Positions 1 to 62,639 of a DNA stretch of 64,000 nt are shown here, piece after piece (positions within the stretch are counted from its first letter, which is position 1; each line of letters starts with the position of its first letter). A program made the translations under genes and the position numbers. The notes beneath the pieces are model-generated. The model ran no database searches, was not told where the DNA came from, and saw only the letters and a program-made list of their open reading frames with translations. Source of the stretch: Antedon mediterranea (Eukaryota; Animalia; Echinodermata); contig NC_092676.1 of assembly GCF_964355755.1 (NCBI RefSeq), positions 23,578,871 to 23,642,870 on the forward strand. The letters are read 5' to 3'.

Positions 1-399
1 TAGGGGTTCTATTGTATGTACAGGTATAGTTTAGTATGTTATGAACAGTATAGAACTTGATGTCAACTACTGTTGAATAAGTACCGTAATGAACTTTAAG
101 ATATTGTCCCATTCAAAAGGTCGCAAGCTTCTATGATTAAATGTATAAAATCCTTGATGAATTTCCTGGGGTATTCTTTATTAATTAAGTGGCCACCAAG
201 GAGACAAAAAAATACCCATGACCTAATGAACATTATACAGTTTTAGAATAAAAATCAGTATATTAAATTCATATTATTTTATATTATTTGCAATAGCATA
301 CATATTGTAGCCATGACCATACAAAAAATAAAAGCCTGCTTCTTGTGGTACTCCCAAAAGGGTTGCGCCAGTCATTGGCCCCTCAACACTTGCACAGAC

Positions 400-602
400 C
401 TTTTTCTTGAGCTTCTTTTAGTTTAACCTCTGCAGCATTCAAATTAGTGACATAGGTCTGGTGATGTTTCTTGTGGTGTAGTTCCATGATATCTGCACTA
501 ATAATAGGTGACAAGGCTGAATAATCATATGGAAGACTAGGAAGGGTGTGCTCACCCCGAACAGAGAGATGTGCAGTAAATTGCAGTGTTGGCCTAAGTA
601 TA
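400..602 (-). CDS. SOD2: Mitochondrial Mn-superoxide dismutase, coding exon 2 (gene continues beyond the window start)
   Basis: Manual translation of the minus strand gives [68 protein letters not shown], matching the MnSOD N-terminal signature HxLPxLPYDY...MxLHHxKHH. The exon has a ttttcAG acceptor (603-604) and GT donor (398-399) and is 203 nt long. Confidence 0.95.
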
Positions 603-1246: not shown

Positions 1247-2426
1247 AACCGCTTTACATTTCCTTAGATTCCAGAGTCGGAAAACATTTCTTGATGTATA
1301 GAACGCTCTTTATCATTGTCTGTCATCACATTATCTTTATCATACTCTGGATAGACATATCTTTTGTTATCAATATAATCTTCATAATTATCCTCATTTT
1401 ATTATGTCTCTTCATCACTCAGCATGTTAAAATATGGATCATCAATCATCAACGTTCATAGCATTTTTATATTGAGTATAACACGACAGTATTATATGAA
1501 TAATAACAGAATATATGTGACTTTATGAGTGACACAAAAAATGACACTCTCTTTATTCGCATTTTAAAATAGTACATTTTGGACTTATTATATATCTTCG
1601 AAATATGAAACACAAATCTCCAGGACCAGGATTACCATGGCTGGGACTGAGCTAAGAACATTTTGAAATAGTGTTGTCATTAGGTCAGCGGAAAATGAAC
1701 TTATTATACTTCGAGATATGAAAAGAAATGTATTATGCAGGACCAGCTCTGTGGTGTTTAGGGCTGAGCTAAGAAAACTATTGTTACGTTACAAATACTA
1801 AAATGAGTAGGCCTAGCAAAGGAGCGATAATATTCTTCACAATACACAACAAGGCATGGTTTACATAGTGGCATAAGAAAAGAAACTAAGCGGATCGAAG
1901 AGGATATTAACACATTTTTTTACTCTATGGTCCGACTCCTTAAAAAAAACTCGGACTAGACATCTCTAAAATAATATACGGTAGTTACCACGAAATATCA
2001 TAATCAAAACGTGCATAATTAAATTGATTAATTAAAAGTAAGTAAACCAAACCTATGGAATAATCTTTAAGATAATAATTGTTCCTCTGAACAAATTTTT
2101 TTTTTAATGTTATGTTTAATGTCACATAGTTATTTACTTTGACCAAAAAATATTTACTTGAAAACTGTAATTTAAAGCCAAAAAAATAGTGGTCATTTTT
2201 TCTTTTTATAAGTGAAATTTTTTTTTTCTTTTAAAACTGCGAAATGGCAGTCTGTGGCGAAAGTCTATTTTAGTAAGCTTCATTTTCCATGCTTTTTTGG
2301 GGACAATACATCTTTAAAAGTCCTATTTATGAAATAATTAATACAAGTTACTAACATACGATGACATATATTATTATAGGTGTTGCCATCATTGGATATA
2401 GGTTATGCCGTATTACCACCGTATCC

Positions 2427-2762
2427 TTAGTTATAATCCATGCGGTGAATATTTACGTTTTTGGCGGCAGCATGGCTCCTGACGTCGTCCGATACTCCAG
2501 AATCTCTTCCAACTGCGAGATGTGCGCTTCCCTGTCCAGAAGCGATTCTTTCTGCTTGGTCTACATGGGCTGTGGTAATTTTCTGGGATGACTTCGATTC
2601 CCAAACCTGGGCTCTTCCTGACCCACTATCAACAACAAAATCTGCTCGGCCTCCGGGTAGGTTCACTTCAGAACGAACTTGGGCGTTCGGATGTTGAGAT
2701 GTTATGTGGCTTTTAACTTGGCCAGCAAAAGACCCGCCATGATTCTGTGAAGTGTTGGACAT
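2427..2762 (-). CDS. Small stand-alone PD-(D/E)xK (Mrr-like restriction endonuclease fold) protein, copy 1, 111 aa
   Basis: The true start is MSNTSQ at 2762, as shown by the paralog at 61391-61732 and a splice acceptor at 2787-2788. Motifs: G-x-x-F helix, SEV, GRADFVV, WESK (E-x-K), VDQ, and a terminal A...VNI segment, in the order and spacing of Mrr_cat-type domains. The ORF is intact and about 49% GC by hand count. Confidence 0.75.
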   Translation of the reverse strand: MSNTSQNHGGSFAGQVKSHITSQHPNAQVRSEVNLPGGRADFVVDSGSGRAQVWESKSSQKITTAHVDQAERIASGQGSAHLAVGRDSGVSDDVRSHAAAKNVNIHRMDYN

Positions 2763-2786
2763 TCTGCAGAATAATTTGTTCTTATT

Positions 2787-3034
2787 CTGAAATAGTACAA
2801 TCAAAGTAAATGTCAATTTTGAATGTTTTTTCCTAATTTTTATTTTTAATTTAAGCTTAAATTCACGCTCCTTATCAGACATTATTGGCATTAATTTAAG
2901 GCCTATCTAGCAACTACAAGGTTTAAAACCTAAAACAAAATTCTGAAATAAAAATGTACATCTCGTTCATGTCAATGTAGCCTATACACCAACAGTGATG
3001 GAATATAAATTAAAACCTAAGGCATCATTCTTAC
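2787..3034 (-). other. 5'-UTR intron of nuclease-like gene copy 1 (non-coding exon 1 from about 3035 upward)
   Basis: AAG|GTAAG donor at 3034 and tttcAG acceptor at 2787. The same architecture occurs in copy 2 (61758-62514). Confidence 0.65.
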
Positions 3035-3160
3035 CTTTGAAGAAATATGTTTCTATTTTTTCTAAACAAAATTATTAGCGTCTGGTTCGTAACTGATCAA
3101 ACATCCAAATAAATTTTATTTGCGGGTAGTGTGTTAATGTATTAAAAAATAATAATTTGT

Positions 3161-12697: not shown

Positions 12698-14024
12698 CTA
12701 GATGGTACGCTCGCTTCGCTCGCGTACCATCTAGGTCGTGCCCACAGATGGTTCTCGAATACACAGTAATTTCAGCGTAACAAAACTGGCGATTTCAATT
12801 GTACGTACCGCAGGACTATAAGACATTGTCGTTTACAGAAACGAATAAATAGACACGATGATTTATGTAGTCAACTAAAATTAGCACCCTGGGAATTACT
12901 TCCGAAGGAGAAACTTATCACAAAATGAGTCCAAATTTTTGATTTGGACTCATTTAAAGAAACCCAATTTGTGTTTTGTATGTAACATTAGGGTTGAGGG
13001 ATGGGGGAAGAAGATAGGTACAAAGAGGAAAAATTTTAAATATATTCTTTATCCACTCAGTAACGAAATATTTTGTTCATGTTTTGTTGGCCTATAAATA
13101 ATATACCTCTAAATACAGTAAACCATTTGCGATTTAATACTTTGTTAAAACTGTCACTGTCATAATCGATTGAAATATTAAAGTACATGTCACGATACAC
13201 CACTACGACGTTTATATTATTGGTAATTATTAATTAATACAAACGTTGAGAAGGAACTGTCAGTATAAAGTTTATTTGTATATAATAATGTGTTTATATA
13301 TCTAACAGTAGAACAGTAGAGCCTAACCACAATCTCAGTAATAAAGTTTGTTTGTATATATTTTTATATTACATCTAACAGTACGAACATTCACAGTAAG
13401 AAATGTTCGATTCAAATGAGGACCAAAAATAGTTAATAGGTATTTACAGTATTGTCAAAGTATTGCAAGTTTATTCTCAAAGGGCCCATATATTTACCTC
13501 CGTATGTGTTACACCAAGGGCTCATAAATTTACCTACTTGTGTTAAACCAAACTCTGGCAGACTGAGAGATTGGGATGTTCCATTCATCGCAAATCAATA
13601 CATTTGTATAATCTTATATTAAATCTATCAAAATAGTATTTTTTAAAGAAAATCGGCCTGTCTTCAACATTATGATGCTGTACTCTAGCTGTTCAACCGG
13701 TTTTCAGCTATTAAAAACCATTATCGTAGGAGGAGATAGGAAAATGCGAAGCCTCCTCGCATTTTTGTGGCGGGTATTTTTCAAGATGGACATCCATTAG
13801 ACAGTGTATACCACGATCGGAAAACACTCCTATTTGGGGCAAATCGTTGAACCTAAATTCGTTTTAATCGTCAATAACTAATTATCTAACTTAATTTAAT
13901 TAGTAAACAGGGTTACATCAGGTGGTTAAAATCAGTACCGAAAGTACGAACCAACTTTATATACCATCGAGTAAAAATTCTAGAAGTAAGGCGCGATTTA
14001 CCGAATTTTGCCCTTACGTAAATT

Positions 14025-14057
<33 letters not shown>

Positions 14058-16310
14058 ATTAATACAAACGTTGAGAAGGAACTGTCAGTATAAAGTTTAT
14101 TTGTATATAATAATGTGTATTTACAGTATTGTCAAAGTATTGCAAGAAGTTTATTCTCAAAGGGCCCATATATTTACCTACCGTATGTGTTAAACCAAGG
14201 GCTTCGCTCGCGTACCGTCTAGGTCGTGCCCACAGATGGTTCTCGAATACACAGTATTTTCCAGCGAGAAAAAAATGGAGATTTCAAATGTACGTAGGCC
14301 TACTGCAGGACTATAATACATTGTCGTTTACAGAAACGAATAAATATACACGATGATTTATGTAGTCAGCTAAAATTAGCACCCTGGGAATTACTTCCGA
14401 GAAGGAAACAAAATGAGTCAAATTTTTTTATTTGGACTCATTATTAAACAAACCCAATTTGTGTTTTGTATGTAACATTAAGGGTTGAGGGATGGGAGAA
14501 GAAGATAGGTACAAAGAGGAAACATTTTAAAATATATTCTTATCCACTCAGTAACGAAATATTGTTTTTAATGTTTTATAGGCCTATAAATAATATACCA
14601 ATAAATACAGTAAAACATTTACGATTTAATACTTTGTTAAAACTCTCACTGTCATAGTCGATTGAAATAGTAAAGTACATGTAACGATGCACCACTACGT
14701 ACGTTTATATATTTTTAAATTATTAATTAATACAAACGTTGAGAAGCAACTGTCAGTAATAACGTTTATTTATTTGTATATTATATGTTTATAATCTAAC
14801 AGTAGGGCCTACCCACACTCACAGTAGTAAAGTTTATTTGTATATTTGTTTATATTATATCTAACAGTACCAACACTCACAGTAAGAAATTTGCGATTCA
14901 AATTGCGATCAAAAGTGGTTAATACCTTAACAGTATTGTACAGCATTGCAATACTATTATGTTTATTCTCCAAGGTGGCCCATAAATCTAAATCTATACC
15001 TCTATGGTTAAACCAAATAATTTGGAATGTTCCATTCATCGCAAATCAATACATTTGTATAAACGTATATTAAATCTATCAAAATAGTATTTTTTTAAAG
15101 AAAATCGGCCTGTCTTCAACATTATGATGCTGTACTCGAGCTGTTCAACCGGTTTTCAGCCATTAAAAACAATTATCGTAGGAGGAGATAGGAAAATGCG
15201 AAGCATCCTCGTATTATCGTCTGCGGGTATTTTTCAAGACGGACATCCATTAGACAGTGTATACCACGATCGAAAAACACCCCTATTTGGGGCAAATCGT
15301 TGAACCTAAATTCGTTTTAATCGTCAATAACTAATTATCGAACTCAATTTAATTAGTAAACAGGGTTACATCAGGCGGTTAAAATCAGTACCGAAAGTAC
15401 GAACCCACTTTATATACCATCGAGTAAACATTCTAGAAGTAACGCGCGATTTATCGAATTTTGCCCTTACGTAAATTTATATATAGATATCATAATGGAT
15501 TTGATGCAGCAACGGTCGCTGTACAGGTAGTTCAAAATACGGAAGTGGAACGACATTGCCACGTCAGCCAATCAGCGACTCACAACAGTTACCGAAGATT
15601 CAGCCAATCAAATCTAAGTCCAAGCTTGTTAATTTTTTAGTGAAATATGTTACGATAATTATCAAAGCCATTATGGCATATGCATAATTGATAACAACTC
15701 GCTTCGCTCGCGTACCATCTAGGTCATGCCCACAGATTGTTCTCGAATACATAATAATTTCAGCGTTAAAAAACTGGCGATTTCAAATGTACGTACCGCA
15801 GGACAATAATACATGTCGTTTACAGGAACGAATAAATAGACACTGTGATTTATGTACTCAACTAAAATTAGCACCCTGGGAATTACTTCCGAAAGAGAAA
15901 CTTGAGAAAATGAGACCAATTGTTTAAGTCAAATTTAAACAAACTTAATTTGTGTTTTGTATGTAACATTAGGGCTGAGGGATGGGGAAGGGGAAAGGGA
16001 TGGGGAAGAAGATGGGTGCAAAGAGGAACAATTTATAAATATATTCTTTGTCCATTTAGTAATGAAATATTAATTGTTTTCACGTTTTACAAATAATATA
16101 CCACTAAACACATTGCGATGTAATACTTTGTTGAAACTATCACCGTCCTAGTCGATTGAAATAGTACAGTACATGTAACGATACATCACTACGACGTGTA
16201 TGTTTATATAATGTAAAACAATTTGTGAAAACCACCTCTATTCGGGGAAAATCATAAATTTGATTTAATCGTCAATAAATATTAAATTATCTAACTCAAC
16301 TTAAATAGTA
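12698..16310 (-). mobile_element. Tandem/compound array of non-autonomous Helitron units
   Basis: On the minus strand the element begins TC(TATATATAAATTTACG) at 15487 and ends with a hairpin plus CTAG at 12698-12734 (ctagatggtacgc...gcgtaccatctag). The unit repeats at 12698-14030, about 14055-15487 and partially at 15698-16310. Confidence 0.75.
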
Positions 16311-17271
16311 AGCCTAATGGTTTTCAATTGTTTCTTAGAGCCAATTCATACTTAAGTTGGTTCCTACCCTACCCACCAAAGTTGTTCTGCGTTTAGGGCA
16401 TGTGATGCACCGTAGGCCTATCCTCTACTGGCTTAACAACGCTACTCATGCCAGTGAGGGAAGGGTGATGATGTGGGTGGTTTAACTGCAATAATAAAGA
16501 TTTGTACATAATATACGGCGACTGAAAACGCTAGCTCATTATCCGTTTAAAAAAAAATTATATCCAACCTCTACAGCACAGATTGAAACAAGAAATATTT
16601 CTTACAAAAAACGCTGCTCGCTTATTGAAAAATATTTTTTATTTCAAAAGTTTTTTAATGTGTCATTTTATTGTCACATAATAGTTATTTTACCTGAAAA
16701 AAATGTAATTTAAAGCAACAAATACTTAAATTGTCTGTCAGACAATGGTTTTTGGGTTTCTTTTCTTTTTTTATATGTGAATAAATATTATATTTTTGTT
16801 ACAACAGAAGTGAATACTAAATTTCTGTTACTTTTGTTAATTTTATTGCTAAGGTCAAATCTGGGGGTCACTTCATCACCCTAGATATTTCAATTGTGAA
16901 GTATCCTATTACAAACACAAACTTTATTGGACGGTTTCGATAATAATTCAATGAATATCTGACAGTGAATATACCAGAAATGCTTAGGGATTTGTAATTT
17001 TAGCATGACATGTCCTAATAGACTCTTTCCCAGACGTTTTTTGGGTCTACTGTAGCAGCTGGAATCAATAAATCATAGTGGAGTTTCCATTTTCACAAAA
17101 CTGTCTGTCCTTAGAACTATAACTGCTGCTTGCTTTAGCTTCTGATTGAGTAGTCCTAATGGGACGTAGCGGGCTAGAGCAGCAGCGTGAAAAAAATGGA
17201 TCGAATTTCTGTTATGAGTATACAGTACTTGCTTTTACGACGCCTGAGGGAATAGACACTTGTGGAACAGA

Positions 17272-17734
17272 GATTGGAATACTCCATTCATCGCAAATCA
17301 ATACATTTGTATAAACGTATATTAAATCTATCAAAATATTATTTTTTAAAGAAAATCGGCCTGTCTTCAACATTATGATGCTGTACTCGAGCTGTTCAGC
17401 CGGTTTTCAGCCATTAAAAACAATTATCGTAGGAGGAGATAGGAAAATGCGAAGCATCCTCGTATTATTGCCTGCGGGTATTTTTCAAGACGGACATCCA
17501 TTAGACAGTGTATACCACGATCGAAAAACACCCCTATTTTGGGCAAATCGTTGAACCTAAATTCGTTTTAATTGTCAATAACTAATTATCTAACTAAATT
17601 TAATTCGTAAACAGGGTTACATCAGGTGGTTAAAATCAGTACCTAGATAACCAACTTTATATACCATCGAGTAAACATTCTAGAAATAACGCGCGATTTA
17701 CCGAATTTTGCCCTTACATAAATTTATATATAGA
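17272..17734 (-). mobile_element. 5' portion of the same Helitron family
   Basis: Near-identical to 15020-15487, with the TC terminus at 17733-17734. Confidence 0.8.
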
Positions 17735-18504
17735 TTCTGACATAGGCGAGCACAATGCAAAAACTTCGGTACAAATCTCCGCCTTGGATACCTACCTTAT
17801 CTATCAGAGATGTACCGCGAAACGTAGATTTGATAACATTAGTTTTCACATCGACGCTATTGTTCCATATTTCTATCTTAGGAAGATATTATAAAGGGTT
17901 TTATAAGAAATTTTCTGATTTCAATCGGTAAATTTTAACTCTATGCGCGGTAGAAGTAATTTTCGGGTTCACAGTAAGGTGTTGGTTTCAACCAGGGAGT
18001 TGTAAAACAACTACCTGTTTCAACTAAGTTGGCCGTTGGTGCTTGGTGGCGATAGCCATTTTGTTTTTTTGTTTATTTTCGGACCGCGCGTGTGAAGGTA
18101 TATAATAGTAGTACATAAACCCCGATAGCCGAGTTGTTGAGTAAGCTGCCAAGACTTTATGTATACTGTGCGCTATCTGTGTCCCGTCAGGATCCTGGGA
18201 TACTGCCCATGTTGCAAGCCGTCTAAAACGTCTTTCTTCTTAGGCCACTGTATCGCGGAATAATGTATTCATTATACCAATTAGGATGGTATTTATTTGA
18301 ATAAACGCTCGGAACACCTCCCCAATAAAACATCATCTAAAATAATTATCTCGCTACTCAACCCCACCCCAAATACATCTAATAAACGCCCATCCACAAT
18401 ATTATATTTATAACCCAATTATACTATTTTTAGTAGATTTCTTCGGACTGTTATCTACAATTTACCAAGCATTTGTTATTCTTTTTTACCACTTTTCATA
18501 TCTA

Positions 18505-20770: not shown

Positions 20771-21340
20771 AAACATACCTTTGCCAGTAAGAAAAGCTTC
20801 CATGCTAAAATGCTGATTTTACTTCTGTATTGAAAATAATTGTATTCCTCTGTATATGTTTGAAGTAATAAGAATAAAATATAATATGTTTGGTAATTTT
20901 TTCAATTCACTTGGCCAGTCATTTAGATGTTTTGAGTTTGTGCTCGTTTATTTTAATGTTTTTATATGATGTATTGTGTGGTTCTCAATTTTTTATGTTA
21001 TTTTATGCTATCTTTTTAAAACATTTCAAATATTTTAAGTACCTTTTAATAATTTAAAAAATTGTCACAATTCAGTTTTTTTGTGAAGATGATTTTAATA
21101 AATATACCATTATGAATGAATGAATGAATGCTCATTGTTCTCTCCAAAAAAGGATTCATTTGAGTAAGCAGCAGATATTTGTTTAACTCGGCTTGCTAGT
21201 TGCTGGTTGCAAGAATACATATTGAATGTACTGAAAGTAAAACTAAACAGTGAAGAGATGGTGTCACAAAACATATACATTAAATGCGTGCGCAGTAAAT
21301 ACCAATATGTGCTAGAATTAATAACCAACGCTTGTAAGAA
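20771..21340 (+). pseudogene. Relic of a GVIN/URGCP-like GTPase C-terminal region (copy D), split by a LINE-tail insertion at about 20820-21127
   Basis: KHTFASKKSFHAKMLI (20771-20818) and MLIVLSKK/DSFE*...CWLQEYILNVLKVKLNSEEMVSQNIYIKCVRSKYQYVLELITNAC match the C-terminal regions of copies A, B and C. Confidence 0.8.
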
Positions 21341-21519
21341 GAATAATGGACCATCGTCTACGTTAACGTAGTCATTCATATTAATAGCTTGGTTCTCTTA
21401 CGCTCTTTCTAAATCAATAACCTCAATCATTTCACTTTGTTATCTTACCTCATCTATTATTCGCACGAGTTCTCAATCAAGATTAAACTGCATGTATGAA
21501 TCAAATTGCATTATCTTTG

Positions 21520-22560
21520 ATATATAAATTTACGTAAGGGCAAAATTAGGTAAATTGCGCGTTATTTATAGAATGTTTACTCGATAGTTAATAAAGTTCG
21601 TTCGTACTTTCGTTACTGATTTTATCTACCTGATGTAACCCTGTTTACTAATTAAATTGAGTTCAAAAATTAGTTATTGACAATTAAAACGAATTTAGGT
21701 TCAACGATTTGCCCCAAATAAGGTTGTTTTCCTATCGTGGTATACACTGTCTAATGGATGTCCATCTTGAAAAAATATCAGCACACAATAAAAATACGAA
21801 GATGCTTCGCATGCTCCTCCTACGATAATTGTTTTTAATAGCTGAAAATCAATTGAACAGCTCGAGTACAGCATCGTAATGTTGAAGACAGGCCAATTTT
21901 CTTTAAAAAATACTTTTTTAATATTTTATACAAATGTATTGATTTTCGATGAATGGAACATTCCAAATTATTTGGTTTAACCGTTAAGGTATACCTCCAT
22001 GGTTTAACACAAGTAGGTAAATTTATGGGCTCTTGGAGAATAAACATAATATTAATAATATTGCAATGCTATACAATACTGTAAATAGGTATTAACCACT
22101 TTTTATCGCCATTTGAATCGCACATTTCTTATTGTGAGTGTTGGTACTGTTAGATATAATATAAACGAATACAAGTACACTTTATATTACTGTGAGTGTG
22201 GGTAGCCCCTACTGTTAGATTATAAACACATAATATACTACGTCGTAGTGATGTATCATAATAATAATAATAAACAGTATTTATATAGCGCCTAATGGAT
22301 CACTGACCCCTCTAGGTGCTTTACATAGGACCTTAACTAATGGTAATAAACTATCCCCCGCCGGACACCATTCCAGTATTTCTTAGTCGAGGTTTCTACA
22401 TTACATGTACTTTATTATTTCAATCGACTATGACAGTGGCAGTTTTAACAAAGTATTAAATCGCAAATGTTTTACTGTATTTAGTGGTATATTATTCATA
22501 GGCCTATAAACATTTTAAAAAAAATCGTTATGCCTACTGAGTGGATAGAAAATATTAAAA
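21520..22560 (+). mobile_element. Inverted copy of the Helitron family, interrupted by an L2 tail (22259-22398, minus)
   Basis: Reverse complement of about 14520-15485. The insert is the reverse complement of 52265-52403. Confidence 0.75.
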
Positions 22561-22880
22561 CATTGTTCCGGTACAGGTACTAAAGATCAAGCTACCACAG
22601 CTAGAGAGAACTTTGCAGCAGGAAAAAGAATGAAACTCACTGAAAGTGGAAAAAAAAGCGCAGAAAAAAGGACAAGAAATCTGACTCTAAGTTAAAATTG
22701 CTTGTCTGGTTCTACTGATATTATATAGTTGTCATTTTCAACTTTGACATTTTTATTTTATTAAATAACTTTAAAAAAAAACAAAAAAATAATAGTGTTT
22801 AAAAAAAATATCGAAAGAAACACACGCGTGTTTGATAATTTATGTATTATGTGTTTGGTCATCCAATGGGTATATAAGTT

Positions 22881-30415: not shown

Positions 30416-30605
30416 GGGTGTTTCGAAACTAGAGACCCGAGACCAGGGAACCCAGACCCAATACGAAAAGGGAGACCCCACTATACGAAAAGGGAGACCC
30501 AAATATACGAAAAGGGAGACCCCAAATATACAAAAAGAGAGACCCAAATATACGCAATTTGCGAAAGGGAGACCCAAATATACGAAAAGGGAGACCCAAA
30601 TATAC
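30416..30605 (+). repeat. About 22-bp tandem repeat (ATACGAAAAGGGAGACCCAAAT) following a GGGTGTTTCGAAAC terminus; probable end of a foldback-type DNA transposon
   Basis: About six units are visible. The terminus resembles GGGTGTCACGAAAC of the element at 32208. Confidence 0.7.
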
Positions 30606-31235: not shown

Positions 31236-31269
31236 TAAACTACTGACAACGGCACCAAATTCGAATAGT

Positions 31270-40989: not shown

Positions 40990-41321
40990 TATAAATCGTG
41001 TCTTTTATCCACCAGAAAAAGGAATTAATAGTTGGAAAATGGCGGTTAAACGATAAAAGTCTCCGGCAGAATCATTAACTGTTCTGTATTATTTGTTTTA
41101 TATGCTGACCTACGGTATATATATATAACAAAATCGTGTCTTTTATCTACCAGAAAAAGGAATTAATAGCTGGAAAATGGCGGTTAAACGATAAAAGTCT
41201 CTGGCAGAATCATTAACTGTTCTGTATTATTTGTTTTATATGCTGACCTACGGTATATATATAACAAAATTGTGTCTTTTTTCCACCAGAAAAAGGAATT
41301 GATAGTTGGAAAATGGCGGTT
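40990..41321 (+). repeat. About 137-bp tandem repeat triplicating the splice acceptor and start codon of GVIN copy A
   Basis: CAG acceptors end at 41015, 41153 and 41289. ATGGCGGTT occurs at 41039, 41177 and 41313. Confidence 0.9.
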
Positions 41322-44300
41322 CCACACTTTGAACAATGTCTTAGTATTTTAAAATTATTGGAACTACATGTGTATTATCCAAAGAAAATTACAAGGGAAA
41401 TGGCACTAACAGTTCCGGGGGAAGTTATTGCACGGAAAGATCTAAACAAGACATGTAACCAACCCTGGTTTATGCTACAAAATATTATTGCAGGCAACTA
41501 TGAAGGAATGTCATTTGCAATAAATACGCAGACATCCGTATCAGAGAGTAGAGGACCTGAAACTTTACTGTCAAATTATTTGCAGGGAAGAAAGCCTACT
41601 GACAGTGGATGCCTGGTAAATCCTCTAGATGTATTAACGTCTTTATTTATATGCTGTGACGATTTTCTAAGGCAGATGTTAGTAGAAAAACTATCTAATT
41701 GTCAGTTAGGCATTCCATTGCTACTTCCAGTAATAGACGCCACTCCACAAACGTCTGGCGTTGAGATGCTTTCTTGGGCAACGAGTACAATACGAAAACA
41801 ATGGAAAACTGCCTCGGGGCAACCTGTTGAGCAATCAATGGCGGTGCATCCGTTACCAATCGTTTCTGCTCTCCGTATAGGAAGACCTAGGCTATCAAAG
41901 TCAAAAATACTCAATGAAACAATGAACTCCAAACATGACCATTTTTTTCACTCTAAATGTACAGGTGGAAGTGTACGAAAAATTGTTTCCAATGGTATAG
42001 TAGAACTTATGTGGTATCTTCCAGTAGGCAGTGATAGAGACAGCTTTCCAGGTGCATTTGGGGTCATGAACCTGCGTGGCAATGCAGTGAATCATTCACT
42101 ACAACGAACCTTTTTGACAAAGGCATCATCAACAGCTATTATCTTCTGTCAACGTGACATGTCTAACAAGGAAGAGATTTATTCGATAACATCTCGGAAT
42201 GATCAACATAGTCACCTTATCCTGGTATTTGATGAAAATCCAAATGAAGAATGGTTTAAAACTTTAGAACATGTCCTACCGGCGTATAAAAATGAGGGGA
42301 AACAAGTTCACGTGTTAACAGATAATTACACAAATAATGTGGCTGATAAAGTTAGAGAGGCTATTAACATGTGCATGTCAAATGATTTCGCTGATCAAAC
42401 AACTTCTAAAAGTCTAGAAGACTGCGAAATAATCGCCAGTCATGCCGATATTCGAATCGATGAAAAAGATTATGGGGATAATTATGAATGTAAGCTGAAG
42501 GCAGTGGATTTGTTGGTATGTCTTCAAGCGGAACATGACAAAGATAAACATTTACCATTACAGGCTATATCGCGTAAAATTGCTTTGAAAACATATGAAC
42601 AAATTGACATGAAATTTAAGGATATGTCAACAGAATCTTATATTTATAAGATGGATTCAGAAATAATGGATTTGCGTAAAAAACAATCTGATTTATGGAA
42701 AGATAAATCCGAAATGATTATGGTCAAGAAGTTTTTAGAATCAGTTGCGTTTACGTCTCTCGGGAGGTCATACTTTTATAACTGGATGGGTACTATGTTG
42801 GACAGGCACAGCATTCATAATTTACAGCTCATACGTGAAAATAAACCTACAAGTATGAATAATTCTGAAATTGTTGAAGAATTCCAACGGAAACTATCCA
42901 ATGCAAGTCTGGGCTTAGAACATTTAAATAGAGAAATCGCCCAAATCTACGAGATGGCATCAGAATTGTCAAGGATGGAAAGTGACATTCAAACATTTCC
43001 AGAAATAGCTGCTCACATGTTAATTGATGGACAACCACTTGAGATTATGGATGGAGATGCGACGTATGTTCCTACAACGTGGTTAAAGGCAGTTTTCAAT
43101 TGCCTAAAGGCAAGGATTGGAAATAAGAAACTATTTGTTTTATCAGTAGTTGGTGTGCAAGGAAGTGGAAAATCAACCATGCTGAATACGATGTTCGGCT
43201 TAAAGTTTGCAGTTGGTGCTGGCAGATGTACCAGAGGCGCATTTGCACAGTTGGTTCCACTTGATGAGGATCTTAAAAAAAAGTACAAGAGTGATTACAT
43301 CATGGTGATTGACACAGAAGGGTTATGCGCTCCTGAATTTGCTGGAATTGATGACAACAATAAACGTGATAACAAATTGGCCACGTTCATAATCGCGTTA
43401 GCAGATTGTACAATTATAAATGTTATGGCTGATAACCAAGCTGGCATTCAGGACATCCTACAGATTGCTGTGTACGCGTTGATGAAAATGGAATCAACTA
43501 ATATAAAGCCTAGCTGCATATTTGTTCATCAGTGTAAAGGTGATTTATTGACTTCGGAGAAGAATATAACATCAGATTTCCATCTGAAAAAAGTACTGGA
43601 CAAATCTACAAGAATTGCCGCAGATATACAAAAAACATCTTTCAAATCGTTTGAAGAAGTGATCAGTTTTCAGCCGGAAAAGCATGTAGTTTATATTCCA
43701 AATCTCTGGCAAGAACATCCGCCAATGGCAACTACGAATCCGGAATATATTCGAAATGTTCTTGAACTCCGAAATCTTGCGTTTTCTGTTATGGGAGGAC
43801 ATTCGAATAGTATTGATGAATTTAGTTTCAAATTTACCGGTGTGTCGAAAGCTGTTCTTTACGAAGAATTTGCCTTTTCTTTCATTCATGCTGTAGAGAT
43901 ACACTCTTACAATGGCTTAGAAAATGAGTATATTGATGCATCAAGAGATTTTAGACGAACATGTATGAGCAACCAGCATGCCTTTGTCAATGCTTGTAAA
44001 AATATGTCGGCTGCAAAGATTAAAGAAGAAGGTACACAAATACTCGAAGTCTACACACGAAAGCTAGATAAATGCTCCGAAATACTTAGAAATCGGATGA
44101 AAGAATACATATGCAAGAACCCCAAAGCGGCACAATGGGAAGCACGTATAAACAGCAGACTGTATGAACTGATTTTGGAAATGCGTAAAACACTTCGAAA
44201 AGAATTTGAAATTGTCAAACAGGCTGTCATTTGGAAAACAAAAATTGAAAAAGGCTACTTACAAGAAATTTATCAAAAGTCGGGTGAACTCGCCAAAAAA

Positions 44301-45959
44301 TTAAGAGCAGATGGTACAAGTGAATCGGAACTAGAAACGGAATTCAACAGATGTTGGGAAGAGTGGATTAACAATACCCCTAAATTGACCGAACTTATAG
44401 ATATCGAGACCACACTTGAAGGAATACTCCGTAAAACAGGTTTGGATGACAAATTTCTAACACAGAACATACTATCGATGTTGACGAAGAAACAAAACGT
44501 TGATGTGTCACTGGATGATGTAATCGAGAATTGTTCTGCTTCTAAGTGCGACCTCCGCAATATAATTTCGAATATTCAAGAAATGGCAATTGCTTCCATA
44601 GATGATTATAGAGACAAAGGAAGTAGTTGCGATGAATCTATCATACAAGATGTCGTCAATGTAGTTTATAACGTTTTACAAAATCCATGACCTTCTGATA
44701 AGTATGTATTTACACGTAAAGCAGTGGTTAAACATACATGTCATATTCTATGGAAATCAATTCCAAAATTCAAAGCTCTTCAGGAAGCCTCCATGGATCA
44801 GAATGACCCCAAAACACTTATGCTTTCTCATAAGGAGATCTTAAGGCAAGAATTCTATAGCGAATTCACCAAAGTAGAAAAATCATTGAAAATAGCTTCA
44901 AATATTGTCATGCATTTGAAAGATGCCAGTACCGAAGCAATTAATCTACAGTTCTTTTTAAGAGCTGTTGAATATTTCAGAACCTCACCTGATCACAAGC
45001 ATATAATTGACAGTAAGACAAGCTTTCATGTCAAAATGCTCATTGATGTCGCCGAAATAAATTCATTTGAGTTAGCTACAAGATACTTGCGAAATCCGTC
45101 AACATTTATGTCTTCTTGGGTGCAAGAGTACATTTTTAATGCACTGCAAGTAAATATAAATGACCAGGGGACCGTGCTACAAAATATTTACTACATCTGC
45201 GTGCGTAGTAAATTCAACGAAATGTTAGTAGCAACCAGAAACGCTTTTACTAAAATCGAAGCAAAGTACTGCAAAGTAAATGAGTTGTGGCAAAAAATAA
45301 ATTCACATTTAGAGCTAACAATGATAGCACCAGTCATGACTATCCCGACAATTGGAAATGAACAAATTCAGGTGGAGAAAGTATGTGAGGAGATCTCTAG
45401 TGAACTAAATGAAGCAAGATATTACTTAACAATGAGAAGTAACGCCGATTTGAAGAAAGATTTAAGACGTGAAATTGAAAAAGTTGTTGAATATTTTGAG
45501 AAAGATCTTGTTGGTTGTAAAGAGTTGTGCCCGTTTTGCGGAGGCCCATGCGATAACACTGCTGGATGTACATCACACCTTACTAGGTGTCATCGACCTC
45601 AAGGTATTTCAGGCCAAAACTGGCACTGGTGGAACTGGAAAAGAAAACGTGGCAACGAACTTGTCGTAGACTTGTGCACAACATCAGTTGCTGACAAAAA
45701 ACAACAATTTAAAAAAAGCGATGTCGATAACAAATGGCATAAATATCACGAATATCGTACTGTTTACGAATCATGGATGATTCCACCAATAGTTGATACA
45801 AACACACAGCTGTACTGGAAATGGTTCATGGCAAAATACAACAAAGAGTTCGCAGATTTTCATGGATGCTTGGAAGCTGAAATTCCAGATAGTTGGAAAC
45901 AAATTACATGGGAAGAAGCAAAGCAGGATCTGATTAACTTATACAAACCAAGAACATAA
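41313..45959 (+). CDS. Very large inducible GTPase / URGCP-like protein (VLIG-type G domain), copy A; single coding exon of 1548 codons with one in-frame TGA at 44688-44690 (truncated allele, young pseudogene or readthrough)
   Basis: G1 GVQGSGKS, G2 RCTRG, G3 DTEG. URGCP/GVIN N-terminal motifs (NPLD..F.CCDDFLRQ...KLS.CQ..IPLLLP; SKSKILN; G.VELMWYLP; NLRG) and C-terminal CPFC..CD..H..HRPQG. ORFs 41313-44690 and 44724-45959 are in the same frame. Confidence 0.9.
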
Positions 45960-54485: not shown

Positions 54486-57400
54486 ATGGCACTTCCTAAT
54501 TATGAAAAAAACATAAATGTTTTAAAATTATTGGAAATACATAAATATTTTCCAAAGAAAATTACAAGAAAGGAGGCTTTAACAGTTCCTGGCGATATTA
54601 TTAAAAGGAAGGATCTCGACCACACACGTGAACTCCCCTGGTTTATGCTAGAAAATATTATTGCAGGCAACTATAAAGGTGTTTCGTTTGTAATCAACAC
54701 TCAAGATACTAAAACTCAATCAGTTGACACTCAAACTCAAGTTGAACAGTCAGATTTGTGGGAGGATGAAGATCAGTTTACTGGTAATGAAGTAAATCCT
54801 CTAGATGTATTGACGTCTTTATTTATATGCTGTGATGATTTTCTAAGGCAGATATTAGTAGAAAAACTGTCTAATTGTCAGTTGGCCATTCCGTTGCTTT
54901 TGCCAGTTATAGACGCCGCGCCACAAATGTCCTGTGTTGAGATGCTATCTTCGGCAACGAGTACTATACGAAAACAATGGAAGACTATCTCAGGGTCAGC
55001 TCAGGAGCGTTCAATGGCGGTGCATCCGTTACCTCTAGTGTCTGCTCTTCGTATAGGAAGACCTAAAGTATCGAAGTCAAAAACACTCAATGAAACAATT
55101 AACTCAGGACTGGACCATTTTTTTCACTTTAGACTTACAGGTGGAAATGCACAAAAAGTTGTTTCTAATGGCGTAGTAGAACTGATGTGGTATCTTCCAA
55201 CAGGCAATGATGAAGATAATTTTCCACGTGCATTTGGAATCATGAACCTACGAGGCAAAGTAGTTAATCATTCACTACAAAAAACCTTTATGACAAAGGC
55301 ATCATCAGTAACTGTTATCTTCTGTCAAAGCGACATATCTAAAAAGAAAGAGATGGACGTAATATCATCTTGGAATGATCAACAGAGTCATCTTATTCTT
55401 GTATTTGATGGAACACCAACTGATGAATGGAAGAAAACTGTAGAAAACGTCCGCGCCACCTACAATATGAAGCAAATAGTGAAAGTTATAACAACCTCTC
55501 ATAAGATCAATCTGGCTGAGAAACTTAAACAAGAACTTAAAAAATGTATGTCAGTTGATTTTCCTGGTCAAGTCACTCCTAAATGTTTGGAAGACTGCGA
55601 AACAATCGCGAATCTTTTCAATATTAGAATTGATGACAAAGATACAGGTAGTAATTATGAATGTAAGCTGAAGGCAATGGATATGTTGGTATGTCTTAAA
55701 GCGGAACATGACAAAGATAAACATTTACCATTACAGGCTATATCACGTGAAATTGCTTTAAAAAAATGTGAACAAATTGACATGAAATTTAAGGATATGT
55801 CAACAGAATCTTATATTGATAAGATCAAATCAGAAATAATGGATTTGCGAAAAAAACAATCTGATTTATGGAAAGATCCATCCAAGATGATTATGGTCAA
55901 GCAGTTTTTAGAATCCGTTGCTTTTATGTCTCTCGCGAGGTCATACTTTTATAATTGGACGGGTACCTTGTTAGACAGGCACTGCATACATAATTTACAG
56001 CTCATACGTGAAAAAAACCCTACATGTATGAAGAAAGATAATTCTGAAATAGTTGAAGAATTCCAAAAGAAACTATTCGATGCAAGTCTGGGCTTAGAAC
56101 ATTTGAAAAGAGAAATCGCTCAAATCTACGAGATGGCATCAGAATTGTCACGGATGGAAAGTGACATTCAGAAATTTCCAGAAAAAGCTGCTGACTTGTT
56201 AATCGATGGACAGACACTTGAGATTATGGATGGAGATGCGACTTATATTCCTACAACGTGGTTAAATGCAGTTTTTAACTGCCTTAAGGCAAAGATTAGA
56301 AATAAGAAACTATTTGTTTTATCAGTAGTTGGTGTACAAGGAAGTGGAAAATCAACCATGCTGAATACGATGTTTGGGCTGAAGTTCGCAGTTGATGCTG
56401 GCAGATGTACCAAAGGGGCATTTGCACAATTAGTTCCACTTGATGAAAATCTTTGAATAAGGTACAATAGTGACTACATCATGGTGGTTGACACAGAGGG
56501 GTTATGTGCTCCTGAATTCGCTGGAGTTGATCAAAATAAACGTGATAACAAATTGGCGACATTCATAATCGCGTTAGCTGATTGTACAATTATCAATTTT
56601 ATGGCAGATAACCAATCTGGCATTCAGGACATCCTACAGATTGCTGTGTACGCGTTGATGAAAATGAAGTTAACTAATCTAAAGCCTAGCTGCATATTTG
56701 TTCATCAGTGTAAAAGTGATTTAATGACTTCTGAGAAGAATGTAACAGCGGAGTTCAAACTGAAAGAACTACTGGACAAAGCTACAAGTACTGCTGCATA
56801 TGAACAAGGAAAATCTTTCAAATTGTTTGAAGAAGTGATCAGTTTTCATCCTGAGAAACATGTAGTCTATATTCCAAACCTATGGCTAGGAAGTATACCA
56901 AGACCAATGGCAACTATGAATCCAGAATACATCAGAAATGTTCTTAAACTCCGAAATATTGTGTTTTCTGTCATGGAAGGACGGTCGACCAGAATTGATG
57001 AATTTAGTCTCAAATTTGCTGGTGTGTCAAACGCTGTTCTTTACGAAGAATTTTCTTTTTCTTTCATACATGCTGTAGAGATACAATCTTACAATGCCTT
57101 AGAAACCGAGTATATTGATTTTTAGACAAACATGTACGAGCTACCATCATGCCTTTGCCAATGCTTGTAAAAATATTTCGGCAGAAAACATAGAAGGAAA
57201 AGCTACAGGAATACTCAAAACCTACCAACTAAAGCTGCAGCAAAGCTACGAAATACTTTGTCGTCGGATGAATGAATACATCAGCAAGAACCCAAAGTCC
57301 GCACAATGGGAAGCACAAATAAACAACAAACTGTCTATACTGAATTCGGAAATGACAAAAACATTTCAAAGTGAATTTGAAATTTTCGAAAAATCTGTCA

Positions 57401-59136
57401 TTTGGAAAACAAAAATTAACAAAGACTACTTACCAGAAATTTATAAAAAATCATGTAAACTTGCCAAAACATTAAGGAGAAACGTTCGTGAGATTGATTC
57501 GGAAGAATTGGTATCGCAGTTTAACAGAAGTTGGGAAGAATGGATTAACGATACCCCACCGATTGAACATATAAATATCGAGACCAAACTTGAAGAAATA
57601 CTCTATGATGCATTTCCTGGATACAAAAGTGTTATAGACAGCATACTGCAGAAGCTAAAGAACAAACAACAAGTTGATGTCTCAGTGGATGATGTAAACG
57701 TAGATTTTATGTCTCACTTCCCCAACTCCGCAATGTAATTTCAAAGTTTCAAGAAAAAGCAGTCATAGATACTGAAAGACGCAAAGGACGTAATTGCAAT
57801 GTATCTATCATACATGAAATCTTCAGTTTAGTACATAGTAATTTGAAAGAAGGAGATAAGTTTGAATTTACACGAGAAGGAGTAGCTAAACATACGTGCT
57901 GTGTTCTTTGGAAATCAATACCTAAATTGAAAGTTCTTCAGGAAGCCTTCATGGATCAGAATGACCCAAAAACGCTTATGCTTTCTCATAGACAGACCCT
58001 ATGGCTAGAATTCCATGACGAATTCCACAAAGTAGAAACATCACTGAAAATAGCTTCTATACTTTCTTTGCAATTGAAAGATGCCGCTACCGAAGTTTGT
58101 TTGTTTGTTTGTTTGTTTGTTTGTTTGTTTGTTGTTTGTTTTAAACGTTGTTGAATACTTAAGAACCTCACCTGAGCACAAGAATACATTTGTCAGTAAG
58201 AATAGCTTTCATGCAAAAATGCTCATTGATCTCGCCGAAGAGGAGTCATTTGAGTTAGCTAAAGGATACTTGCTAAATCCGTCATTCCGTATGTCTTCTT
58301 GGGTGGAAGAATACATCTTAAAAGCACTGCTGCAATTAGTAAAGACAAACGGTAAAGAGACGATGCTAGAAAACATTTACTACGGATGCGTGCGTAGTAA
58401 ATACAAAGACGTGCTAGAAGCAACAACCAGCGCTTGCACAAACGTCGGGCCTACTTGCAGAGTAAGCAAGTTGTGGCGAGAAATAAATTCAGGTTTTGAG
58501 CTAACAATGACACCAGTCATTGTTCGCCCTAAACACATTGACAATGATGAAATTCAAATTGACAAAATATTTGATGAGCTCTCTAGTGAACTAACAAAAA
58601 GCATGACAAAGAGAAGTAAAATTGATTTAAATAAAGATTTAAGACGTGAAATTGGAAAAGTTGTTGAATATTTTGAGAAAGATCTTGTTGGTTGTGAAGA
58701 GGTATGCCCGTTTTGCGGAGCCCTATGTGATAACACTGTCGGATGTACAACTCATCAAACTGAGTGTCATCGACCACAGGGGATTGCAGGCCAGAACTGG
58801 AACTGGTGGAACTGGAAAGGAAAGCGTGGCAATGAACTTGTAGTAGACTTATGCACAACATCAGTTGCCGACACCAAACAAAAATTTAAAAAAATCGATG
58901 TTGATAACAAATGGCATAAATACCATAAATATCATACTGTTTACAAATCATGGATGATTCCACCAATAGTGGATACAACCACACAGCTCTACTGAAAATG
59001 GTTCATGGCAACGTACAACAAAGAGTTGGCAGAAATGCATGGATGCAAGAAAGCTGAAATTCCAGATAGTTGGTACAAAATCACACGGGAAGAAGCAAAG
59101 CAGGATCTGATTAAGTTATACAACATAACAACATAA
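54486..59136 (+). pseudogene. Full-length GVIN/URGCP-like GTPase pseudogene (copy B)
   Basis: Colinear with copy A. It has an in-frame TGA at 56454-56456 within the G domain, frameshifts near 57120 and 57720, a (TTTG)n insertion at about 58095-58140, and TGG>TGA at 58993-58995. 3' flank 59137-60480 is homologous to 45960-47200. Confidence 0.92.
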
Positions 59137-61390
59137 AGGTAAGACGTTATTAATGTATGATGATGATTAATGAAATGTATTAGGATGCTCTTTTTTAGTT
59201 TGTATTGTTTGTAATTTCAAAAATAGTGGTCATTATTATGCCTAAAAAAATATTTATGATTGTATTATTTTGTTTACGAAATGAATTATTCTTTTACATC
59301 TCTTTGACGATTTTGCCGCTTAGTAAGCGTATTGTAAAATACAATCTATTCTAAAACGGAGTACAGGAGATTGAACCATTTTGTGATATGATTATAATAA
59401 ATAATGTCCAAGTTATAACTAAACAGCAAATCTCTAGGACTATTTTCATAATTTTTCAAAATTCTGAAAAACTTCTTAAACAAGAAAGAAACCTTAATTT
59501 TTTTAAATGTAATGTTACTAACAAGATTTTTTTCATTATTAACAGCTTTGGTTTGATGCCTGAACGCTTATCCACCAGTACTAAACACATTTTTGTTTAT
59601 TATTCGACCCAATATGAATTATTCAGAATTCGGAAATTTAGCATAGGGGCATGGTGGGATTGTTATAAAAACTTAAACGAAGTACGTAAATAATACAGAT
59701 AAATGGTAGGCGTATAATGCGTGAAGAGAATTTAAAATTTAGATTTTGTGTCTAAGGTTGATTGGAAAATCAGCCACTAAATTACACTAAAGAAATTACG
59801 AATAATAATATGAATTGTTATCAAGGCCATATACATGGCTGCCCCAAGTCGCGTGCACCAAAATGTTTGAACGCGACTAAAAATGTGTCGTCACGGGGAT
59901 TGTCTTGCACCAATGAGTTTGAAACTTCTCTCTCTTCGAATGGATCGGTTGCGGTAGATTAAAAAGAGCATATCGATTATAACATTACATAGCTGTGTTA
60001 TTATGTATGGCTATTGTATATTAGAAATGAAACAGCCATTACTTTAGCAGATCGTGTAGTATTATACCTATTGCAGTAGATTGCAATTTGTGTTTTTAGA
60101 GACATTTTATTAGCACTTCGTTGTTTGGTAAACCGTATAGATAGAAAGCCTTATTTTATATTAAGGTCGTTTATTGGTAATATTTGAATCAACTTAAGCC
60201 TAACTTGTTATGATGACTTATCTAAATTGTAATGTTTTATGTATGTCATTGGGTTATAATTTCAAATGTGTATTGCTCAAGAGAATTATTTTTGTGAGAA
60301 ATAACCCTGGCATTGCCATGAGATGCCTTCCCTGATAACGCAGAAAGAATCACCAATAGCAATAAATCTCAATTAGTAGGAATCATGTACAGTTGTTTGT
60401 GTTAACTTTGTTGTTGTTGATAATCACTCAATATATTTGACCAAAGCAATCAAACAATAGGATGATGAGCTCACTCTGCTAAAATATCAGTCCTTTGATC
60501 TATGATTGGCTGCGACAAATTCATACTTATAGTTGCGGCGGTTCCCGGGTGACATTTAAATCAAACGTGTCGCAACCACAGTTGAAACAATTGATCTAAC
60601 GAAGCTCAGCATCCTGTTGTTAGATTGCCATGATTCGACTGCCAGATAACATTCCGCATTACAAATAGGATGAATATGAACACACCAAAAACATGTAGGC
60701 CTACAACTTTGTGTTTAAAATGTGTTGGTCTCAATATGTGAGATTGAGCGCGTTCATGTCAACATTCCTTGTTGTTGCCCCTCCACTTCCACTCCCTACC
60801 CCCTGCCTTGTGTTTGATATTGATATTCCACCCCCCCCCCCCCCCTACGACTCTTACAATGCAGAGGTGTTACTTTTACTTGTGGAATATCAATTTTATG
60901 CCTTCTTCACTTCCTTATCAATTTTAAAATCGACAATGTCCACTTTTATCAGCATCAGTTAATTTTCTCATCAACAATCATCAATGTATTTGTGGCTTGC
61001 ATTGACATACAAATTGAACACAGAAACACATAATTTTATTTAAATTTGCACAAAATCTGAAATACATACAATTGTTAAACTATATAATATGTTGGAAAAA
61101 AAACGTTTTATATGTCTACAAAATCTTCCCCGCTTCCCTTAATTCAACATTAAAAAAATAATTTTAAGATTTATAATTATATACATAGGCCTATATATTA
61201 ATATCATTCTTGTATTTGAGCAACTTGCTGATGTGTTGTGTCGACTGTGTCGACAATTAGAAATAATTAATTATATTTAACTTTGAATTATCTGAAAACA
61301 TATGTTCCTATGATGACATAATTAATATAGGCGTTAATATTGAATACGGATTGTATATCGACCGCCATACGTTGGATATGCTATAATACA

Positions 61391-61732
61391 TTAGTTATAT
61401 TCCATACGGCGAATATTCACTCCGCTGCCCTTAGCATTAGCACTGACGGTCTTCGATACGCTAGCATCTTTTCCGACTGCAAGGTATGCGTTACCACCCG
61501 GCCCAGCATTCCTTGCTGCTTGGTTCACATGAGCTGTGGTAATTTTCTGAGATGACTTCGATTCCCAAACCTGTGGCCTTCCTGACCTACTACTAACAAC
61601 AAAATCTGCTCGGCCTCCTCCTCCTGGTACCGTAACTTCAGAACGAACTTGAGCATTCGGGTTTTGAGATGTTATGTGGCTCTTAACTTGGCCAGCAAAT
61701 GACCCGCCATGATTCTGTGAAGTGTTGGACAT
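61391..61732 (-). CDS. Small stand-alone PD-(D/E)xK (Mrr-like) protein, copy 2, 113 aa
   Basis: Intact paralog of 2427-2762 with RADFVV and WESK retained. 5'-UTR intron 61758-62514 has a GTAAG donor and tttcAG acceptor. 3'-UTR similarity to copy 1 and a candidate AATAAA at 61035-61040. Confidence 0.75.
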   Translation of the reverse strand: MSNTSQNHGGSFAGQVKSHITSQNPNAQVRSEVTVPGGGGRADFVVSSRSGRPQVWESKSSQKITTAHVNQAARNAGPGGNAYLAVGKDASVSKTVSANAKGSGVNIRRMEYN

Positions 61733-62196
61733 CTTGCAAATAGTGTCGTATAGTATTCTGAAATGTAATCATAAATTAACTGTACAACTAATTTAAATAC
61801 AAATGTTACCATTTTAAAATGTTGTTTTTTACCTTTTTGCCACAAAACACTCTTATAAAGCTTGATTTAGACGTTTCTTAATTAATTAATGGTTTGATAT
61901 CATTAAATAAACTTCTTTTTTTTTCAATTATTGCTCTATTTAGGCCTATTTAGTTATAACAAGGCCATTATAGATGGCTGCAGTCTAGTCGCATGCTCAA
62001 GTTAGTGTTTACCGACCAACCAATCGACCGACCAACCGACCGACCGACATAGTGAGATGTAGAGTCGCGTTGCACGTGACTAAAAACATTAAAATAATTC
62101 ATATTTTCATTGGAATTTGTGACTTATTAATAAAAAGTCAGTGACATAGACTGTTTATAAATGTATACATAAAGCCTTATATTAGCAACAAACAGT

Positions 62197-62420
62197 GGAA
62201 CTGTAGCTTGGTGGTTGACGTGCTCGCCTTCTAATCTAAAGGTCTGGGTTCAATCCTGACCTAGTACCAGGGTTGTTAGGGCCTACTTTCAACTCCACTT
62301 CCAAGCATCAAATGAGACTTAGTTTATAAGCACGATAAACTAGCTATAACATATAGTTTACCTCATCCTGTAATGGACGAGTTTTTGCTCGCTGTTGGAT
62401 GAGTATGAAATAAATAAATG
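62197..62420 (+). mobile_element. tRNA-derived SINE within the intron of nuclease-like copy 2
   Basis: A box TAGCTTGGTGG, B box GGTTCAATCC, (TAAA)n tail. Confidence 0.6.
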
Positions 62421-62639
62421 AAAGTATCTCGTCAATGTGATTGAATGCCGCTGTAGTACTACAAGCTAAAATAACACCAATTCTGGTAAAACATGACTGA
62501 AGCAGTAAACTTACCTTTAAAAATTATTGTAAGATTGTGATTCTAGAATTGTCGCCTTCGATGGTTCACAACTCAAGTTAGTCAATCAAATGTATATTTT
62601 CTGTGCGAATTATAAGTTAAATTCTAGTAGTGCTGAAAT

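Follow-up and report, generated by a model that had tools for sequence, protein, structure and literature searches.

A spliced and duplicated crinoid gene predicted to encode a stand-alone PD-(D/E)xK nuclease-fold domain

Introduction

A free restriction-type nuclease threatens an animal's own genome, and no animal is known to use such enzymes against invaders. A first-pass annotation made from the letters alone proposed a domesticated gene of this kind in DNA of the feather star Antedon mediterranea. The locus lies near one end of a 64,000-nucleotide window (NC_092676.1, positions 23,578,871 to 23,642,870) and raises three questions: is this a genuine animal gene, what fold and family does its product belong to, and what might a crinoid do with it? 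Here, we address these in turn by comparison of the two copies in the window, searches for relatives, structure prediction and profile alignment. In the literature searched at the level of titles and abstracts we found no description of the family, and an earlier mention may exist; in the accessible part of one source naming the crinoid Anneissia (PMC8195603), that genus figures only for NCOA6.

Results

Two intact gene copies, each with a predicted leader intron

The reading frame was first described as intact, free of Cys, lacking a signal peptide and duplicated elsewhere in the window. Translation confirms this: the N-terminus has no hydrophobic stretch as judged by eye, the duplicate is an open frame with 75% amino acid identity to copy 1 (Table 1), and every motif originally listed, from GSFAGQV to AAAKNVNI, is present. 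The key residues of copy 1 are A13 (at the position of the helix-1 Glu), E32, D41, E55-x-K57 and Q69. A third copy was not found within the 64-kb window by tblastn. Alignment between the two copies is confined to the coding sequence, the splice acceptor and small patches beside them, including a little sequence past the stop codon, so the duplication is old and the reading frame is the conserved part. No convincing terminal repeats surround the copies in the window.

Table 1 Features of the 64,000-nucleotide window, in order of position.
Feature	Positions	Strand	Remarks
Fe/Mn superoxide dismutase (SOD2) exon	386..553	minus	~1 kb past the likely copy 1 transcript end, same strand
Copy 1, likely 3' UTR	1518..2426	minus	~0.9 kb; X1 contigs 1518-1799 and 2244-2531
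Copy 1, CDS	2427..2762	minus	111 aa, predicted stand-alone PD-(D/E)xK domain
Copy 1, 5' untranslated part of exon 2	2763..2786	minus	24 nt
Copy 1, 5' leader intron	2787..3034	minus	248 nt, GT-AG; bridged by an X1 contig
Copy 1, non-coding exon 1	3035..3130	minus	upstream end approximate; 46 letters at the contig joint
Family-29 glycosyltransferase (sialyltransferase) exons	24998-27033	plus	between copy 1 and most GVIN pieces
GVIN1/URGCP-type giant GTPase	41313..45959	plus	1548 codons, one in-frame TGA at 44688-44690
Second GVIN/URGCP copy	54486..59137	plus	broken by stops and frameshifts; ~2 kb from copy 2 and convergent with it
Copy 2, CDS	61391..61732	minus	113 aa; catalytic residues as in copy 1; pI 10.7
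Copy 2, predicted leader intron	61758..62514	minus	conserved acceptor; AAG/GTAAG donor at 62515/62514

Exon 1 of copy 1 holds a 9-codon out-of-frame uORF starting at 3104, and a polyadenylation-type signal, AATAAA, lies at 1552-1557 on the minus strand. In the spliced leader an in-frame stop is found seven codons upstream of the junction; therefore the frame begins at the ATG at 2762, and no longer protein can run into the ORF through this junction.

Five sequencing runs from two studies contain the stretch. None is recorded as RNA, and one, X1, was guessed to be RNA by the tool. At copy 1, X1 does resemble RNA, with exon 2 and pieces of the 3' region covered and a depth of 0 in the intron bin 2837-3003; the 3' cover comes in separate pieces on either side of 2000-2244 and ends near the AATAAA signal. 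One X1 contig links 2776 to 3035 with 10 diverged letters replacing 2777-2786, which supports the 2786/3035 junction in an allele that has diverged or in a close paralog. Two DNA-like runs, X2 and X4, continue through the intron with 0-2 differences and without the joint. The spliced non-coding first exon of the first-pass annotation, with its 3035/2786 junction, is supported: the splice sites are canonical (donor AAG/GTAAGA at 3035/3034, acceptor TTTCAG at 2787/2786) and an X1 contig makes the join, although that contig is diverged and the RNA type of the run is a guess.

For copy 2, one contig of X1 is identical to 61363-61730, which speaks for presence, not expression. X1 depth over this copy is as shallow as over non-coding stretches and so uninformative on expression, and none of the X1 joints listed crosses its leader intron. 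Diverged contigs (26 differences in 185 letters near copy 1, and 37 in ~235 letters near copy 2) indicate at least one further putative paralog elsewhere.

Selection on the coding sequence

Between the two copies, dN/dS is 0.43 overall. Over codons 1-72, pN is 0.053 against a pS of 0.25 (Fisher p=5e-4), and this core is under purifying selection. In the last 40 codons pN (0.34) still falls below pS (0.44), so the C-terminal divergence is not above neutral. The divergence is mosaic, with 88% amino acid identity in the core (codons 1-72) versus 49% in the C-terminal third (codons 73-111), a level like that between species (44-54%), a pattern that suggests either 5' gene conversion or a fast-changing C-terminal surface.

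A family found only in crinoids

A profile built from the two copies was used for the full protein-library search and gave five matches among 1.84 billion representative proteins. Two of these are true homologs (E-values 1.9e-26 and 1.6e-19), both from crinoids and both full-length: XP_071944466.1 from Antedon mediterranea itself and XP_033097926.1 from Anneissia japonica (LOC117101921), with 52% and 45-47% identity to the query over 95% of its length. The other three were discarded as multi-stretch matches to repeat proteins. Both homologs are annotated as uncharacterized, with no domain assigned by Pfam. The extra length at their N-termini is probably an artefact of the gene models; in XP_071944466.1, residues 15-50 repeat the protein's own C-terminal region (44% over 36 aa), which points to a tandem copy fused into the model. 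The predicted pI of all four family proteins is basic, at 8.3-10.7, as suits nucleic-acid binding.

A word-based search with the four-sequence profile recovered the same two crinoid proteins among 3846 candidates, and word-based homolog searching found none among 4 candidates and none among 4931 longer ones. Scans of viral, genome and metagenome contigs returned 0 loci. Of 1604 sampled prokaryotic genomes, 6 gave a match at E<=0.01, which is chance level. No significant relative was found in phages and plasmids by tblastn; a Burkholderia plasmid match (E 1e-3) was dropped, as it lacks the D and ExK motif. Sequence searches of the PDB gave 0 matches, then one at E 0.39. Pfam, NCBIfam and PHROGs gave nothing above cut-off, with sub-threshold hints of Cas4, PDDEXK_9 and SfsA (E 0.06-0.2), and PADLOC gave nothing for the window copies. 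Within the sequences searched, then, the family is restricted to crinoids, and these scans revealed no prokaryotic or viral donor.

Predicted fold and candidate catalytic residues

The AlphaFold model built with an alignment has a pLDDT of 87 and a pTM of 0.80; the single-sequence model, at pLDDT 59, already matched NucS and AF1548. DSSP assigns to the model H12-23, E28-35, E38-45, E51-57, H64-74, E78-84, H92-100 and E103-107, giving the predicted order helix1-b1-b2-b3-helix2-b4-helix3-b5, in which the alpha-beta-beta-beta-alpha-beta core of the superfamily is present. In the VIA structure comparison, 14 chains scored Z>=8, led by NucS (2vld; Z 12.4, rmsd 2.5, 96 residues aligned) and AF1548 (1y88; Z 11.6, rmsd 2.4, 97 aligned), then Cdn1, Can2, VC1899 and SfsA. 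All four Foldseek matches in the PDB at E<=1e-3 are SfsA, NucS or Card1. Against viral models Foldseek gave nine at E<=1e-3, of which the best (4.8e-6) is an unnamed 118-aa protein with 20% identity and an rmsd of 6.8. An independent Atlas model of the Anneissia protein shows TM scores of 0.72-0.83 to PDDEXK_3, Mrr_cat, Card1 and RmuC clusters.

Residues invariant in all four members include G9, S11, F12, D41, E55, K57 and Q69; the members' cores share 45-56% identity in pairwise comparisons between species. D41 falls in predicted strand 2 and E55/K57 in predicted strand 3, as expected of motifs II and III. From these strand positions and the structural matches we infer that D41, E55 and K57 would cluster at a metal site. 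The helix-1 position is Ala13 in both window copies and Glu (GxSFE) in both crinoid homologs.

The fold and the conserved D, E and K, both proposed in the first-pass annotation, are thus upheld, the fold by the model and its structural neighbours NucS, AF1548 and Card1, the residues by their presence in both copies and in every member. Its replacement of the helix-1 Glu by Ala holds for the window copies and does not extend to the whole family. In PMC2790908, as far as its accessible text goes, the helix-1 acidic residue is secondary in several PD-(D/E)xK enzymes: LlaGI with the E38A change at this Glu retains partial activity, as nicking, and comparable changes abolish some enzymes while merely weakening others. 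By predicted fold and triad, membership of the PD-(D/E)xK superfamily is secure. The claim of a real host gene is also sustained, by the spliced leader, two intact copies, crinoid homologs and purifying selection, and we are highly confident of real gene and fold together. Putative nuclease activity in at least some members is likely.

Placement within the superfamily

The protein had been labelled Mrr-type. For a profile comparison we aligned a query profile of the four sequences to member alignments of seven families, each with 40 column shuffles. The nuclease end of DUF4143 gave the best hhalign score of the seven (39.9; shuffled maximum 16.7), followed by GxxExxY (24.6 over 36 columns; 16.7), Tox-REase-7 (22.2 over 59 columns; 20.7), Mrr_cat (15.1 with an 18-sequence alignment; 15.3) and NucS (15.0; 18.0). 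DUF234 (9.7 with 17 sequences; 16.5) and Card1 (9.1 with 4 sequences; 13.9) scored below their shuffled maxima and were rejected as the family.

Mrr and the crinoid family belong to the same fold subgroup; the crinoid homologs have the F-E motif I, and the TM score to Mrr_cat (PF04471) clusters is 0.79. However, Mrr has an extra motif-II Asp, a QxK motif and an N-terminal domain, and the crinoid family has none of the three. The first two are the hallmark of Mrr according to the accessible text of PMC2790908, the extra Asp lying four residues ahead of the catalytic Asp, to which Gly links it. In all four members the position four before D41 is Gly or Asn, and motif III reads ESK or EAK. With both Mrr-defining motifs absent, no Pfam hit and a score within the shuffles, the Mrr label does not hold, and nothing in the family points to methyl-DNA specificity.

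Against full-length ORFs the DUF4143 match scored 40.5 (shuffles at most 17.7; reversed query 12.9). Its probability is 91% forward and 58% in reverse (score 29.9), for a family that was picked post hoc after a weak hit. In this match G..FE, D and ExK of DUF4143/COG1373 (PF13635) fall in register with the crinoid profile over 61-78 columns. In DUF4143 proteins, however, this domain ends a protein of 360-440 aa with an N-terminal ATPase, whereas the crinoid domain stands alone and has an extra C-terminal helix and strand; the in-frame stop in the spliced leader and, more weakly, the lack of any match among the 4931 longer candidates speak against such an N-terminal part here. Pfam made no DUF4143 call on the family. 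We take the relation as a promising pointer and stop short of placing the family in DUF4143. The part of PMC3424549 available records DUF4143 from prokaryotes only, and a DUF4143-related REase is named among the effector domains of predicted prokaryotic immune systems in the available part of a preprint (bioRxiv 10.64898/2026.10.19.760177).

The nearest Atlas cluster for both queries (0.93, 131 aa, TM 0.77; PF13366 on 54% of its members) is that of the small stand-alone prokaryotic and viral GxxExxY/PDDEXK_3 proteins, and the local match covers D..ExK..H..Q over 36 columns; however, the crinoid family lacks the GxxExxY tyrosine, and its 149 and 135 shared Atlas features of 256 fall below the 170 typical of true members of this cluster. 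Tox-REase-7 (PF15649; genomes of 5 of the 20 members in our alignment were checked against this profile, and all 5 passed) shares a GxxxE, xD, ExK, Q signature and a similar C-terminal strand-helix-strand. Polymorphic toxins of this sort form the C-terminal tip of a secreted protein and have an immunity gene next to them, whereas the crinoid ORF stands alone without RHS, ankyrin or export module, and its neighbours are SOD, sialyltransferase and GVIN genes, with no immunity gene. NucS/EndoMS (2vld, 5gke) and AF1548 (1y88) have the same order of elements (rmsd ~2.5 A over 96-97 residues) at 10-14% identity. In NucS, an N-terminal domain for mismatch binding and dimerisation precedes the nuclease domain; the crinoid family has no N-terminal recognition domain, and the 111-aa protein aligns to 2vld residues 126-233 only.

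Genomic neighbourhood

Copy 1 sits beside SOD2 and 18 kb from the closest GVIN fragment. The window holds four GVIN/URGCP pieces (~21, 31-34, 41-46 and 54-59 kb), and each of them is interrupted in the assembly. Those at 21127-21397, 31267-33620 and 54486-59137, all on the plus strand, are fragmentary or frameshifted. The 41313-45959 frame is broken by its TGA at a position where the paralog reads through; it would be a null allele or a pseudogene of recent date, unless the assembly is in error. An insert divides the piece at 31-33.6 kb; its two ends, 32208-32296 and 33203-33291, form inverted repeats with 99% identity, and this repeat sequence recurs at 35666-35763. A repeat family of 0.5-1.4 kb, in tandem and inverted arrangement with 79-95% identity, occupies 12710-17735, 21511-22569 and 47808-48278 and has no Pfam match.

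The first-pass annotation had seen no adjacent transposase or reverse transcriptase. The window has 172 open stretches of >=62 aa; a Pfam scan that covered 134 of them and 11 ORFs besides (the 38 omitted overlie the copies or GVIN ORFs) found neither. Together with the absence of viral loci in the contig scans, this bears out that the gene belongs to no recognisable transposon or virus. A 168-codon ORF at 30429-30935 on the minus strand, far from both copies, has no Pfam match, and its first part looks by eye like a piece of a non-LTR retroelement. A nuclease borne by a transposon or virus, of the R2-type RLE kind, was rejected on the absence of a Cys knuckle and of any transposase, reverse transcriptase or viral locus, and on flanks that the copies do not share.

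Discussion

What sets this case apart is that crinoids keep a bare domain of ~105 residues as a host gene that is spliced and present in several copies; it is apparently an undescribed stand-alone family of the REase fold. For its role we tentatively favour, at a little short of an even chance, a nuclease domain from a prokaryote or virus that would now work as a metal-dependent, low-specificity enzyme of cell-autonomous defence. The domain would have been taken up and then kept as a spliced and duplicated host gene. D41 in b2 and E55/K57 in b3 would form the catalytic triad, with Q69 in the next helix; by analogy to other superfamily members, D41 and E55 would bind Mg and K57 would position the attacking water. 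The Glu-bearing crinoid homologs would be fully equipped, and the Ala-bearing window copies would have weaker activity or only nick, unless E32 compensates. By the register of the hairpin, in which 35 pairs with 38, E32 should lie opposite D41, where it could in part stand in for the missing Glu; its counterpart in the Antedon protein, which retains the helix-1 Glu, is Gln. No sensor, targeting or export domain is found in the family protein. Lacking a recognition domain, the enzyme would be of low specificity, and its control would have to come via expression, location or a partner in trans.

An origin in a prokaryote or virus, through horizontal transfer, is somewhat favoured. Many transfers of PD-(D/E)xK domains from prokaryotes to eukaryotes are described in PMC3424549, in the part accessible. 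The same portion places DUF2034/Mrr_cat, as well as inactive or RNA-acting PD-(D/E)xK proteins, already in eukaryotes, and so descent inside eukaryotes is possible. A precedent for transfer into animals, likened here by description, is Tox-REase-8, which reached arthropods and Trichoplax and whose bacterial form usually comes with ankyrin repeats (PMC3482391, accessible text).

The defence role is the weakest step of the proposal. A role in conflict is favoured by the narrow range, the turnover of paralogs, the fast C-terminal third and the GVIN neighbours, human GVIN1 being described as antimicrobial in the part of the source available; these traits also have dull alternatives, namely gene conversion, chance proximity and decaying GVIN copies. 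The same gene and fold could instead do a non-immune job, as a pseudo-nuclease that binds nucleic acids or in the processing or clearance of RNA or DNA, comparable to Rpb5-N, Sen15, NARG2 or Rai1-type proteins. The Ala in place of the helix-1 Glu in both window copies would fit, as would the deep contigs over copy 1 in a run without known challenge, depth being a poor measure, and eukaryotes have repeatedly made this fold structural or RNA-acting (PMC3424549, accessible part). However, D, ExK and Q are invariant in four of four members, Glu is kept in both crinoid homologs, and narrow range with paralog turnover is unlike housekeeping genes; we regard a non-immune job as rather unlikely, though still a serious contender.

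Less plausible again, and in our view distinctly unlikely, is that the gene is a selfish toxin or travels with a virus or mobile element, as cargo that kills cells or cuts genomes and persists through its own spread or a toxin-antidote scheme without benefit to the host. Dispersed paralogs exist, the crinoid consensus fits the Tox-REase-7 signature GxxxE, IxD, ExK, Q (PMC3482391, accessible text), the movement of Tox-REase-8 into animals would be a parallel, and a toxin-derived selfish gene has been reported in free-living eukaryotes (PMC12957317, in the part available). Yet the Tox-REase-7 score barely exceeds its shuffled maximum, the flanks of the copies do not align past the splice acceptor and the short stretch after the stop, and no antidote candidate was seen near the copies, nor any convincing terminal repeat, transposase, reverse transcriptase or viral locus. 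We consider it highly improbable that the protein is a NucS/EndoMS-like repair or structure-specific nuclease, one that supplies catalysis while another subunit does the recognition. NucS gives the closest structural match, and an alignment over 82 columns follows the order RxE..G..D..ExK..Q..DYN, but the alignment score lies within the shuffles, the N-terminal mismatch-binding domain is absent, and one would not expect a repair gene to be limited to crinoids or present in multiple copies. An artefact, be it contamination by bacteria, an ORF arisen by chance or a dead pseudogene, is almost certainly not the answer and is largely refuted, for although coding GC is 48% in a window of ~33% and the exact protein sequences are absent from the protein collection, the ORF sits among intron-containing animal genes, DNA contigs extend from it into both flanks with 0 differences, GC3 (0.37-0.39) is near that of host GVIN (0.32), and the gene is spliced, under purifying selection and has homologs on 39-Mb and 3-Mb crinoid scaffolds.

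Returning to the nuclease of cell-autonomous defence, a bolder form of the proposal is that crinoids captured a DUF4143-like effector from a prokaryotic ATPase-REase conflict system, dropped its sensor, added a spliced leader and run it as a stand-alone innate-immune nuclease family switched by expression or a partner, possibly the neighbouring GVIN GTPases; this we judge unlikely. If that capture were true, an animal would have rebuilt a restriction-type nuclease out of a bacterial component, and any immune role would add one more module to those shared between animals and prokaryotes. With a 111-residue version under selection, one can ask directly how such a nuclease is tamed and put to use in an animal. 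It is also a very small scaffold for minimal PD-(D/E)xK catalysis, in which the natural Glu/Ala variants at motif I can be set against each other. Should there be no immune role, the analysis still provides a fold and a likely chemistry for two uncharacterized crinoid proteins.
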